Assembly: GCA_050872785.1 (NCBI GenBank) | Contig: JBNMHO010000002.1 | Span: 72,165 to 136,164 of the forward strand | Reading direction: 5' to 3' | From: Clostridia bacterium | GTDB lineage: Bacteria > Bacillota > Clostridia > Christensenellales > UBA1242 | Length of the DNA stretch: 64,000 nucleotides | Shown here: piece after piece, positions 736 through 50,652 of the stretch | Layout: each line of letters begins with the position of its first letter | Numbering within the stretch: the stretch's first letter is position 1 | Notes under the pieces: generated by a model | What the model was told of the DNA's origin: nothing | Databases searched by the model: none | The model's input: the letters and a program-made list of their open reading frames with translations, nothing else | Made by a program: the position numbers and the translations under genes

Positions 736-2565
736 ATGGAAAACACGAAAGTAAGAAATATAGCAATTATTGCACACGTTGACCACGGCAAAACAAGTTT
801 GGTCAATGAACTTTTAAAGCAAGGTGGTGCTTTTAGGCAAAATCAAGAAGTTGAAGACAGAATTATGGACTCCAACGCTCTTGAACGTGAACGTGGAATT
901 ACAATTTTGAGCAAAAATGCTTCATTTATGTATAAAGATGTGAAAGTTAACGTTGTGGACACCCCTGGACACGCTGACTTTGGCGGCGAAGTGGAAAGGG
1001 TGCTTAAAATGGTTGACGGTGCGTTGCTTGTTGTTGACGCATATGAAGGTCCAATGCCACAGACAAGATTTGTGCTTGAAAAGGCTTTGGAACTTAATTT
1101 AAAGATTATTATTGTCATAAACAAAATTGACAGAAAAGACAGCAGGCTTGACGAAGTGCCAGATGAAGTTTTGGAACTCCTTTTGGACCTTAACGCAAAC
1201 GATGAACAACTGGATAGCCCTATTGTTTATGCTTCTGCTCGTTTTGGAACTGCGACACTTGATAAAAACGTTCCTGGCAAGGATATGACACCACTTTTTG
1301 AAACAATTATCAATCACATTCCATGCCCAAGTGGCGATGAAAATTCGCCATTTGCAATGCTTGTAAGTTCAACTGAACAAAACGACTTTTTGGGCAAACT
1401 TGCAGTGGGGAAAATTGAAGCGGGGACACTTCACATCAATGACAGCCTTGTTGTCACAAACTTCCACGATAAAGAGAGAAATATTCCATTTAAGGTTCAA
1501 AGCATGTTTGAATTTGTGGGGCTTAAACGTCTTCCTGTTCAAGAGGCAAAAGTTGGGGATATTGTGTGTATCGCTGGGGCGGATAACATTACAGTTGGTG
1601 ACACTTTGAGCGACAAAGAAAACGTTAGGACGCTTGATTTTGTTAAAATCAGCGAGCCAAGCGTTGAAATGAGTTTTATGGTCAACAACAGCCCATTTGC
1701 TGGAAAAGAAGGCAAATATTGCACCTCAAGACAACTTAGAGATAGACTTATGAAGGAAGCAGTGAAAGACTTAAGCCTTCGAGTGTTTGACACGGACAGC
1801 GCAGATACATTCCGTGTGCTTGGACGTGGCGAAATGCACCTTTCAATTCTTATGGAAAATTTAAGACGTGACGGGTATGAATTCCAAGTAAGTATGCCAA
1901 AAGTTTTGTATAAAGAAATTGACGGCAAGAAATGTGAACCAATCGAAAGACTTGTTATTGACCTCCCAGACGACAAAACGGGTAACGTTATAAGCGTTCT
2001 TGGGGCAAGAAAAGGCGAACTTTTGGGCATGCACAGTCACAATGGCAGAACAAGACTTGAATATCTTATCCCAGCACGTGGACTTTTTGGATATAAGAGC
2101 CAATTTTTAACAGACACCAATGGCGAAGGCATTATGAGTAGTGTGTTTTATGACTATGAAGAATTTAAAGGCAACCTTTCAAGAAGAAATTATGGTATGC
2201 TTGTGGCTTATGAAACGGGCGAAGCAGTGCAATATGGGCTTTTCTATTCTCAACAACATGGAAAACTCTTTATAACACCTGGTGAAAAAGTCTATGGTGG
2301 CATGATTGTTGGAACGAACCCTCGTCTTGACGACATTGTTGTTAATGTTTGCAAAACAAAGCACTTAACAAACACACGTTCCAGTGCAAGCGATGACGCA
2401 TTGCGACTTGAACCAGTGCAAAAGCCAAGTTTGGAACAATATCTTGATATGCTTGACGAGGATGAACTTTTGGAAATTACTCCAAAAAGTATCCGCATGA
2501 GAAAGAAAACTCTTGACCACACAATTCGTGGCAGAGAAGATTTCAAAAAGAAAAATTCAAAATAA
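736..2565 (+). CDS. typA: translational GTPase TypA/BipA
   Basis: 609 aa. GTPase motifs are AHVDHGKT (G1), DTPGHADFGGEVER (G3) and NKIDR (G4), with TypA-type collinearity over the full length. A GGAGAG RBS lies just upstream of the ATG. Confidence 0.95.
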   Translation: MENTKVRNIAIIAHVDHGKTSLVNELLKQGGAFRQNQEVEDRIMDSNALERERGITILSKNASFMYKDVKVNVVDTPGHADFGGEVERVLKMVDGALLVVDAYEGPMPQTRFVLEKALELNLKIIIVINKIDRKDSRLDEVPDEVLELLLDLNANDEQLDSPIVYASARFGTATLDKNVPGKDMTPLFETIINHIPCPSGDENSPFAMLVSSTEQNDFLGKLAVGKIEAGTLHINDSLVVTNFHDKERNIPFKVQSMFEFVGLKRLPVQEAKVGDIVCIAGADNITVGDTLSDKENVRTLDFVKISEPSVEMSFMVNNSPFAGKEGKYCTSRQLRDRLMKEAVKDLSLRVFDTDSADTFRVLGRGEMHLSILMENLRRDGYEFQVSMPKVLYKEIDGKKCEPIERLVIDLPDDKTGNVISVLGARKGELLGMHSHNGRTRLEYLIPARGLFGYKSQFLTDTNGEGIMSSVFYDYEEFKGNLSRRNYGMLVAYETGEAVQYGLFYSQQHGKLFITPGEKVYGGMIVGTNPRLDDIVVNVCKTKHLTNTRSSASDDALRLEPVQKPSLEQYLDMLDEDELLEITPKSIRMRKKTLDHTIRGREDFKKKNSK

Positions 2566-43098: not shown

Positions 43099-43424
43099 TC
43101 ACTTGCTCGTTAGAGCAAATATATGCAAATTTTTTCAGTAATTTTTTGTTAAATGAAATTGGCTTTCAGCCAATGATATTGACCAACGGTCAAAAATATT
43201 TCCCTTGGTCAATGATATTACTCATTTCATTCGTAATGATATGATATTTGCTTAACTGATCCTATCATTCTTTTTGAGAATATATGAACCCTCGCTTCAT
43301 TTATTTTATTACAAAATATATGAACCCTCGCTTTGCTCGGAACCATATATTCAAAAAGAATATCATTCACGAAGTGAATATCATTGCGAAGCAATTTCAC
43401 TTGCTCGTCAGAGCAAATATCATT
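43099..43424. repeat. non-coding region of short hairpins plus AATGATAT/ATATCATT octamers, bounded by 24-bp direct repeats
   Basis: TCACTTGCTCGTTAGAGCAAATAT (43099-43122) repeats as TCACTTGCTCGTCAGAGCAAATAT (43397-43420). AATGATAT occurs at 43172, 43211 and 43235. Its complement ATATCATT occurs at 43360, 43378 and 43417. The 19-nt AATATATGAACCCTCGCTT occurs twice (43279 and 43315). Confidence 0.85.
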
Positions 43425-43426
43425 GT

Positions 43427-43678: not shown

Positions 43679-43809
43679 CATATTTTTTCAAAATATTTTC
43701 AAAGTTTACAAATTTTTTTTATTTTTATCAAAATTTATGATTTTTTAGCCCATTTTCTTGCCAGAAATATGTAAAATTCCATATAAATTGGCATTTTGCA
43801 CAATTCCGC

Positions 43810-49219: not shown

Positions 49220-49295
49220 TGGTGGAGATAAGCGGATTCGAACCGCTGACCTTTGCGATGCGAACGCAACGCTCTACCAACTGAGCCATACCCCC
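49220..49295 (-). tRNA. tRNA-Ala (anticodon CGC)
   Basis: The reverse complement is GGGGGTATGGCTCAGTTGGTAGAGCGTTGCGTTCGCATCGCAAAGGTCAGCGGTTCGAATCCGCTTATCTCCACCA. It has the G3:U70 alanine identity pair, anticodon loop TTCGCAT and an encoded CCA. Confidence 0.9.
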
Positions 49296-49309: not shown

Positions 49310-49338
49310 ATTATATCAAACATTTGTCGCATTGTCCA
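49310..49338 (-). promoter_or_regulatory. sigma-A promoter of tRNA-Ala
   Basis: On the minus strand: TGGACA (49338-49333), a 17-nt spacer, then the extended -10 TGaTATAAT (49318-49310). This lies about 15 nt upstream of the tRNA 5' end. Confidence 0.65.
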
Positions 49339-49347
49339 CAGTTTTTT

Positions 49348-49428
49348 GGGGCGACAGAGAATTTTCCCTCGGAAAATTCGGCAAAATCTTCCGATTTTGC
49401 CGCAAAACTCCGTTTTGCCTGTCGCCCC
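49348..49428. other. perfectly nested 81-nt four-way junction / triple-palindrome element
   Basis: The closing stem is GGGGCGACAG (49348-57) / CTGTCGCCCC (49419-28). It encloses three abutting perfect hairpins. They are GAATTTTCC-ctc-GGAAAATTC (49359-79), GGCAAAATC-ttcc-GATTTTGCC (49380-401) and GCAAAAC-tcc-GTTTTGC (49402-18). Only one junction nucleotide is unpaired. Confidence 0.85.
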
Positions 49429-49462
49429 CCGCATAATATTTTTCGCAACCCCAACAAATTTC

Positions 49463-49491
49463 TTGACAAAACATCTTATATAAATTACAAT
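49463..49491 (+). promoter_or_regulatory. sigma-A promoter candidate of the Flg_new paralog 2
   Basis: TTGACA (49463-49468), a 17-nt spacer, then TACAAT (49486-49491). It would give a leader of about 135 nt. Confidence 0.6.
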
Positions 49492-49634
49492 TTTACAGAA
49501 ACTATTATAAAACAAGAGATTATCTTGAGTGTGTGCCTGCCCTTGTAAGGGGAGGTGGCAACGAAGTCGACGGAAGGGTAGTCAAATAATAGCAACTACT
49601 CTATTATTTAGAGATTAAAAGGAAGAGTACAGAA

Positions 49635-50652
49635 ATGAGATTTTGGGACAAAATGAGAGTCGGCATGCTGTGTGTAAACTATACACTTGTCATGGCTCTT
49701 CTGTCCATTATCATCTTCGGTGCAACCCAACAAAGAACAATCGGAAACGTGTCTGTGACCTATTCTAGACCCTATTACACGGTCACTTTTGACCCGGCAG
49801 GGGGGGGGATCTCCCAGCCAAAAGAGCGTTAAATTAGGCGATTTATACGGCGATTTGCCCGTGCCAACACGCACGGGATATAACTTCGGCGGTTGGAAAA
49901 ATGGTTCTCTAATCGTAACTGCGTCCACACAAAATACAACAGTCGGGAACCACACTTTAACTTCCCAGTGGACGCCTCAAACGTTCACAATAACATTCAA
50001 CAAACAATCTGGTTCTGGCGGTTCGTCAACAGCAACGGCAACATATGGACAAGCACTTCCAACAATAACCATTCCCACTCGAAATGGCTATAAGTTTGAA
50101 GGCTATTTTTCGTCAACTGGCGGCTCTGGCACAAAATATTATAATGCAGACGGAACATCTGCAACAACTTGGTCACAAACATTGTCCATAACTCTCTACG
50201 CCTACTGGTCAATCCCACCAACTACCTTAACTATAAGTGGGAATGGAGTAAACACCTATTCTTGGGGTGGGTCTGCTTATTGGACTCTTAAATATAACTC
50301 ATACGGATCGGGGACATGGTATTGGGGAAATAACTATGGAGCTATCACACTAACGGCTGGGGGCGGCGGTGGAAGATGGGTTTATTCTATAATATCACTT
50401 GACTTGTATAAAGAGGATCTCACCACTGGTGAAGTATATGAACGCAAAGATAGGGATAACTCGGATTTTAAGCCAACTATTTCAAGCACAGAGCAAACTG
50501 GAGCAATTACTATTTCAATACCAGCGTTTTACATACACGGTATTTATGACAATGACGATAGAAAGGAGTCAACGTGGACATATGTTTTTCAAGCAAAAAG
50601 TGTGATAAATGGTTCTAGTATCACAGCGGACTTTGATTTGTATCCACAATAA
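49635..50652 (+). pseudogene. Flg_new surface-protein paralog interrupted by a frameshift in a G9 tract (phase-variable gene or pseudogene)
   Basis: ORF 49635-49832 (MRFWDKMRVGMLCVNYTLVMALLSIIIFGA...TFDPAGGG) and ORF 49789-50652 (...[29 protein letters not shown]...) are collinear with the 339-aa paralog at 43871. The frames meet in the G-run at 49800-49808. Deleting one G restores a protein of about 338 aa. Confidence 0.8.
49800..49808 (+). repeat. poly-G (G9) homopolymer inside a coding sequence
   Basis: The sequence reads gacccggca GGGGGGGGG atctcc. This is the only long G-run I noticed in this AT-rich window. Confidence 0.95.

Follow-up and report, generated by a model that had tools for sequence, protein, structure and literature searches.

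An 81-base element at positions 49348-49428 of the window, the 64,000-nucleotide stretch of DNA that was analysed, is best explained as one copy of a small, low-copy, non-coding palindromic mobile repeat. The repeat would be of the MITE/REP type, fold into a cloverleaf and belong to a narrow Christensenella clade. We put the probability of this reading at about 0.55. It is favoured because the copies have sharp common ends and invariant inverted termini, lie at unrelated loci, show turnover of the sites they occupy and carry lineage-specific changes within a genome.

The element reads GGGGCGACAG-A-GAATTTTCC-ctc-GGAAAATTC-GGCAAAATC-ttcc-GATTTTGCC-GCAAAAC-tcc-GTTTTGC-CTGTCGCCCC and consists of 35 perfect pairs, 10 loop bases and one junction base. 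Its left end clamp, GGGGCGACAG (49348-49357), pairs perfectly with the right end clamp, CTGTCGCCCC (49419-49428), and the two form a terminal inverted repeat. The 10-bp clamps never vary: they are the same in all five assembled copies, and no difference in them is listed among the metagenome variants. The single unpaired junction base (49358) is A here and C or G in other copies. Hairpin 1 (49359-49379, GAATTTTCC-ctc-GGAAAATTC) carries compensatory changes, and its loop differs between copies in both sequence and length (CTC, TGC, ATTC, CTT, AAA). Its polarity, with the T-tract first, is opposite to that of hairpins 2 and 3. Hairpin 2 (49380-49401, (G)GCAAAATC-ttcc-GATTTTGC(C)) has eight invariant inner pairs and a variable loop, and its closing G-C pair is missing in three of the five copies. 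The stem of hairpin 3 (49402-49418, GCAAAAC-tcc-GTTTTGC) is invariant, with either TCC or TTT in the loop.

Folding with ViennaRNA gave a four-way junction as the minimum-free-energy structure of the 81 bases. For the plus strand as RNA, the energy is -47.5 kcal/mol (z = -9.1). The minus strand as RNA reaches -48.9 kcal/mol (z = -8.2), and the element as DNA -32.0 kcal/mol (z = -8.75). The sequence-only reading had described a nested four-way junction with these numbers of pairs, loop bases and junction bases, and the folds of both strands proved all of them correct.

In the window, the element lies between two divergent promoters, as had been described, and both promoters were confirmed. On the left is the promoter of the tRNA-Ala(CGC) gene (49220-49295, minus strand), which has the form TGGACA-17-TATAAT with a TG (49310-49338, minus strand). 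Its -35 box is 9 nt from the left end of the element, and this spacing is equal in two of the other copies (L101 and L083, see below). On the right, the promoter of a G9-interrupted Flg_new surface-protein gene, TTGACA-17-TACAAT (49463-49491, plus strand), has its -35 box 34 nt from the right end. The window copy is thus upstream of both strong promoters and within neither transcript. A promoter scan revealed no promoter-like site directed into the element; a minus-strand candidate (TATTAT at 49435-49440) was rejected as it lacks any -35 box. The terminator scan reported no intrinsic terminator at the element, and a GC-rich stem with an immediate U-run is not present: neither clamp is followed by a U-run, as the right one continues into CCGCATAA and the left one (minus strand) into AAAAAA. 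Just beyond the right end, the word ATATTTT (49436-49442, plus strand) is repeated 3-7 nt past the element at four separate loci. The word is also found in the empty site described below, and this ATATTWT word may reflect a target preference.

Some further features of this region were recorded alongside. The G-run that splits the surface gene (49800-49808) has nine G in the window and about eleven in Christensenella sp. UBA7862 (L101, positions ~1040-1051, minus strand), and a form with an additional GGG occurs in metagenome contigs. Its length thus varies among relatives, as expected of a contingency tract. The leader of the same gene is about 140 nt long (49498-49634) and contains a GC-rich hairpin, GCCTGCCCTTGTAAGGGGAGGTGGC; the leaders at L120 and L121 are much shorter or different. 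At 43355-43425 (minus strand), adjoining a tRNA-Glu/tRNA-Met pair, there is a full-length match to Gut-1 RNA (RF01706) with 62 bits.

The unit is 81-82 bp long. Within a narrow clade of Christensenella-like gut bacteria it occupies no fewer than five different loci, and each genome has 2-4 copies. One of these sites adjoins tRNA-Ala, another precedes rnhA, and a third precedes a second surface-protein paralogue; the two others come from metagenome contigs only. We scanned 185,579 species genomes for the clamp-pair pattern and obtained 118 loci, three of which are true copies; the rest are mostly unrelated GC-rich palindromes. Christensenella sp. UBA7862 has one copy in the orthologous position, with tRNA-Ala(CGC) on one side and the surface gene on the other (L101), and another which starts 14 nt past the stop codon of a 317-aa gene and is upstream of the rnhA promoter (L108). 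In a Hadza-gut Clostridia MAG, the copy L083 adjoins the promoter of tRNA-Ala(GGC) and lies 33 nt behind the stop codon of a convergent gene. A scan of metagenome contigs with a strict hairpin 2/3 core pattern gave only three contigs, all in sample ERZ808245. The three copies on these contigs have equal coverage; two are the UBA7862 loci, and the third (L121) is upstream of another MKFWDK surface-protein paralogue.

Samples X1-X3, which carry the window genome, contain a second copy ("variant A") with a different right flank, AAAATATTTTGTTCAAAAAACTTGAC. In all three samples, the depth of variant A follows that of the window genome (9.0 vs 8.3, 12 vs 8.8-11.6, and 29.8 vs 28-31.6). By contig depth, the window genome thus has two copies, one of which is found by the covariance model in the 64-kb window. 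In run X7, the unit occurs at four loci. In run X8, the copy at tRNA-Ala differs in hairpin 1, a copy of the L083 type is flanked on the left by non-tRNA sequence, and one site is empty. Copies of one lineage have lineage-specific changes in common. All copy numbers given here are based on contigs and depths. Assemblers tend to break at hairpins, and the assembled public contigs do break inside the element.

Altogether, the comparison drew on five complete sequences plus some six partial variants from metagenomes. When the 64-kb window and 34 other loci were searched with the covariance model R1, built from the five assembled copies, neither a further nor a diverged copy was detected. Words upstream of the other surface paralogue (~43775-43805) had been regarded as related, but they gave no covariance-model match and no meaningful alignment. 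On the same evidence, a decayed copy of the element at 43.7-43.9 kb was rejected. Plasmid, phage and viral collections contain nothing similar. The comparison with Rfam that had been proposed yielded no matching family: in Rfam 15 there is no match at the gathering threshold, and the sole match up to E = 10 is a meaningless one of 19 bits. The region was found in none of the RNA-seq runs. Literature searches on the decamers and on Christensenella repeats returned only primers and unrelated reviews, and no paper on the element. The surface-protein homologues provided no further upstream regions.

Filled and empty sites could be compared between close relatives. The rnhA site is filled in UBA7862 and empty in the window genome, in which one contig at genome depth matches both L108 flanks and has 91 unrelated nt in place of the 142 nt that include the element. 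The same site is empty in L134, where rnhA is 85% identical. Variant A differs from the L108 copy by only two changes and one gap, yet it is located at another site. Similarly, the left flank of L121 is 96.5% identical in the window genome, but continues there into other DNA. For the tRNA-Ala site, a contig of run X8 follows the promoter up to 49346 and then reads ACAAATATTTTACAATT, with no element; its junction is ...TTTTT|ACAAATATTTT. Since this continuation resembles the DNA to the right of the element in filled sites, the contig is an empty site, with edges that fall within a few bases of those of the element. In more distant relatives, in which the neighbouring 354-aa protein is 80-84% identical, the site has a tRNA-Ala gene or none, and no element. 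We found no target-site duplication at five loci, the flanks of which have no common direct repeat. The edges of the copies, compared in both orientations, have no word in common, and the clamp is preceded on its 5' side by TTTT, GTGG or GTTA. The turnover of occupied sites takes place between genomes that are about 90-96% identical. Because the 2-4 copies per genome occupy different intergenic sites among such close relatives, the unit appears to be gained and lost as a discrete block.

The sequence-only reading had considered the perfect stems to be more like those of REP, cruciform or single-strand DNA sites than those of a riboswitch. This is borne out by a dispersed repeat with invariant end clamps, the presence of which varies among close relatives. 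A second proposal, that of a shared operator or insulator of this particular promoter pair, finds no support in these data. The unit also precedes rnhA and another surface gene, follows a convergent gene beside tRNA-Ala(GGC) and occurs at other sites, and it is absent from orthologous sites in relatives.

The stems are conserved, and the loops drift. Once the five copies are aligned, variation is seen in 11 of the 12 unpaired columns, compared with 5 of the 70 paired ones (Fisher p = 3.5e-9). Standard pairs occupy 97.7% of the pair cells, versus 36-55% when the partners are slid by 1-3 columns. Two compensatory changes were observed in hairpin 1: C-G to T-A in L083 and metagenome variants, and A-T to G-C in run X8. 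The partial variant from X6 suggests a third one, in hairpin 2. With so few sequences, the shuffle control for covariation was not significant (96/500). Hence, the case for constraint rests on the contrast between loops and stems. The fold is kept in all copies, with z from -7.7 to -11.4. When the window is compared with L083, the tRNA is 86%, the promoter flank 81% and the element 93% identical, and the compensatory pair is the only difference in the stems of the element. A search for homologous copies and covariation had been suggested; as copies and two compensatory changes were found, the outcome gives no reason to conclude that the element lacks a conserved function. L108 has one nucleotide inserted in loop 1, which excludes a coding role. 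Both strands fold equally well, with no strand preference, and a single G·T wobble occurs once on each strand (plus strand, X6 variant; minus strand, L121), so that the folded form may be either strand, as RNA or as DNA.

As a mobile repeat, the unit would act as a miniature non-autonomous element of the MITE or REP-REPIN kind. Its ends would be defined by the invariant 10-bp inverted repeat and its interior by three related hairpins placed end to end, and a single strand of either polarity would form the cloverleaf. This folded strand, most plausibly DNA exposed at replication, would be the substrate of a trans-acting enzyme. A candidate is a hairpin-reading transposase of the HUH/Y1 type, and recognition by such an enzyme would keep the clamps and stems intact. 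The unit would then have come to lie at the promoter pair of the window by accident, having inserted into an intergenic site that tolerates it, where side effects on the promoters may occur. Due to the lack of a target duplication and the hairpin-rich body, a single-strand hairpin-reading style of transposition (REP/REPIN-RAYT, IS200/IS605; PMC3116915, PMC6006769) is favoured, and a cut-and-paste MITE style probably fits less well. Several observations speak against a mobile repeat. With 2-4 copies per genome, the number is very low for a MITE or REP family. The five loci are without target-site duplication. The tRNA-Ala-locus copies of three or four species look vertically inherited, and the element (93%) is better conserved there than the flanking promoter (81%); this greater conservation would also be explained by a function for the host. 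Furthermore, a promoter -35 box is never more than about 55 nt away from a copy.

The main rival is a DNA module upstream of promoters, which we regard as unlikely. Here, phased A4/T4 tracts would bend the helix, or the palindromes would be extruded under negative supercoiling between divergent promoters; the unit would tune or insulate the promoters and be kept, and occasionally copied, for helping them. Six A4/T4 tracts (at 49362, 49373, 49383, 49395, 49404 and 49413) are indeed phased with a mean spacing of 10.2 bp. Outside one end of each copy, at a distance of 9-54 nt, is a hexamer resembling a -35 box, and the hairpin-3 side is directed toward a promoter at five loci. L121 is near-identical to the window over the unit and some 45 nt to its right, up to and including the -35 box, but differs in the 5' UTR beyond. 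The conservation of the unit above that of the neighbouring promoter at the tRNA-Ala locus points the same way. Bending, however, requires neither perfect dyad symmetry nor a 10-bp clamp with its halves 61 nt apart nor compensatory changes, and the arms, at 7-9 bp, are short for a cruciform to be extruded. Close relatives lack the unit at their rnhA and tRNA-Ala promoters, the genes that would be served (tRNA, RNase H, surface proteins) are unrelated, and in L083 the hairpin-3 side is directed toward the 3' end of the convergent gene and not toward a promoter. More specific protein sites were rejected. A palindromic operator of a dimeric regulator would have half-sites of fixed spacing and equal polarity, whereas loop 1 has 3 nt in some copies and 4 nt in others, hairpin 1 is opposite in polarity, and the changes are compensatory rather than losses of a consensus. 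A CodY box in hairpin 1 is a partial resemblance only, as the arms AATTTTC / GAAAATT are 5 nt apart and not 1; the likeness of the clamps to a Spo0A box (TGTCGCC), also partial, has the wrong spacing.

A structured RNA, as the sequence-only reading had also proposed, appears improbable to us as a general explanation. It would be a small stand-alone RNA or a very stable cap at the 3' end of an upstream transcript, serving as stabiliser or roadblock as in transcribed REP and BOX repeats. The fold is very stable (89% of the plus-strand RNA ensemble is in the minimum-free-energy structure), and the conserved stems, variable loops and two compensatory changes fit an RNA as well. Where the unit is behind a gene, 14 nt past a stop codon in L108 and 33 nt past one in L083, such a role is possible. 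The window copy is not explained in this way, since it is in neither transcript, with no inward promoter and no U-run after the clamps. The unit shows no strand preference, with one G·T per strand, and has no Rfam match even at E up to 10 and no occurrence in any RNA run. A non-mobile relic is also quite improbable. In that case, an ancestral hairpin cluster at several loci would have been lost differently among lineages, palindromes being prone to deletion, and gene conversion would have homogenised the survivors with no transposition machinery involved. The low copy number and the lack of a target-site duplication agree with a relic, and lineage-specific changes within genomes are as from concerted evolution. 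The right flank of the window copy is closer to L121 of UBA7862 than to the orthologous L120, which suggests recombination between copies. For a relic, however, all the different loci, which number at least five or six in a few genomes, would have to be ancestral, and the close likeness of variant A to the rnhA copy of another species, at another site and with the rnhA site empty, looks like movement. Chance palindromes or an assembly artefact have a negligible probability: none of 200 shuffles folds as well as the element, and its presence in independent assemblies (GenBank MAGs, ENA and several Logan runs) already refutes them.

The similarity pattern of the right flank is an observation in itself. 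The 45 nt to the right of the element through the -35 box (49429-49470) are closer to UBA7862 L121 than to the orthologous tRNA-Ala locus L120, which hints at possible recombination or conversion between paralogous promoter regions.

We compared the mobile repeat with named repeat families. BOX, RUP and SPRITE of Streptococcus pneumoniae are structured intergenic Firmicutes repeats that are composed of hairpin modules and have an unknown or incidental function. BOX elements are modular (A-Bn-C), imperfect and abundant, whereas the unit has one fixed architecture with perfect stems and no sequence similarity to them. Bacterial MITEs, such as Correia/NEMIS of Neisseria (PMC2229807, PMC10969869), are, like the unit, small non-coding sequences located between genes; they end in perfect terminal inverted repeats, and their boundaries are sharp and common to the copies. 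They also occur at unrelated loci, often beside promoters, and their sites are filled or empty among relatives. Correspondingly, the unit has a perfect 10-bp terminal inverted repeat that is invariant in five of five assembled copies, and its copies are at non-homologous loci (at least five), with the rnhA and tRNA-Ala sites varying by genome between filled and empty. Unlike MITEs, it has no target-site duplication, either at the five loci or in the empty site, no known parent insertion sequence and only 2-4 copies per genome. MITEs also form one long imperfect foldback, whereas the interior of the unit is made of three abutting perfect hairpins.

REP/BIME sequences and REPINs, which are mobilised by RAYT transposases (PMC3116915, PMC3337134), are likewise palindromic and extragenic, fold as single strands and leave no target duplication. 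Their stems are constrained while the loops drift, they persist vertically at some loci, and a Y1/HUH enzyme acting in trans presumably reads them as single-stranded DNA (PMC6006769). REPINs, however, consist of two inverted REP hairpins around a spacer; they carry a GTAG-type guide, flank a RAYT gene and reach tens to hundreds of copies. The unit differs from them by its three internal hairpins and has no known RAYT. Its ends are plain decamers instead of two inverted REP units with a GTAG-type guide, and its copies are few (one in the 64-kb window, two in the window genome, three in ERZ808245). Elements derived from IS200/IS605 have a 4-5-nt target 5' of the left end and no inverted ends, whereas the edges of the unit have no common word and its ends are inverted. 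The unit fails defining features of each named family and is thus not a member of any; it is best regarded as a new palindromic repeat that folds into a cloverleaf.

The closing decamers also occur in palindromic repeats of other phyla, which have GCCCC-N3-GGGGCGACAG arms and the Acido-Lenti-1 motif (RF01687; PMC2864571). Their central part is closed by the identical GGGGCGACAG...CTGTCGCCCC pair. These repeats are GC-rich foldbacks of about 200-250 bp that also have GCCCC-N3 partner hairpins and arms with Acido-Lenti-1, all of which the Christensenella unit lacks. RF01687 has no match in the window, L083, L101, L108 or L121. The common decamer may be a coincidence or a common recognition word.

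The foldback GCCCC-N3-GGGGCGACAG...CTGTCGCCCC-N3-GGGGC accounted for 77 of 122 pattern matches in the species genomes. Its loci include L006:2660-2905, L010:1080-1320, L081:5010-5200 and L003:7740-7940 (and 74 of the 118 clamp-scan loci), and its hosts are Acidobacteriota, Planctomycetota, Bacteroidota, Chloroflexota, Nitrospirota and others. Where loci of Acidobacteriota and Planctomycetota were examined, RF01687 matches flank the foldback in inverted orientation as its outer arms. As this arrangement is seen at several loci, the Acido-Lenti-1 "RNA motif" may belong, as one arm, to a palindromic repeat of about 230 bp. In a rabbit-gut Clostridia MAG there is a perfect palindrome of more than 100 nt with the same decamers (L023:4865-4968), which is probably unrelated or an assembly foldback.

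A bolder proposal, and a long shot, is that GGGGCGACAG is the recognition word of a widespread single-strand DNA enzyme. The cloverleaf would then be the dedicated substrate of an undescribed system that reads hairpins, a minimal derivative and a mobile promoter-context module that brings phased A-tract hairpins upstream of promoters.

If the reading as a mobile repeat is true, an unusually compact, cloverleaf-folding family of very low copy number would be added to the palindromic mobile repeats, and low copy number is the regime in which palindromic repeats normally go unnoticed. It would also be a caution against the idea that the element regulates tRNA-Ala or the phase-variable surface gene beside it. 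Since it marks variable sites among close Christensenella relatives, the element could be used as a strain marker, and its invariant ends would provide a handle for finding the enzyme that moves it.
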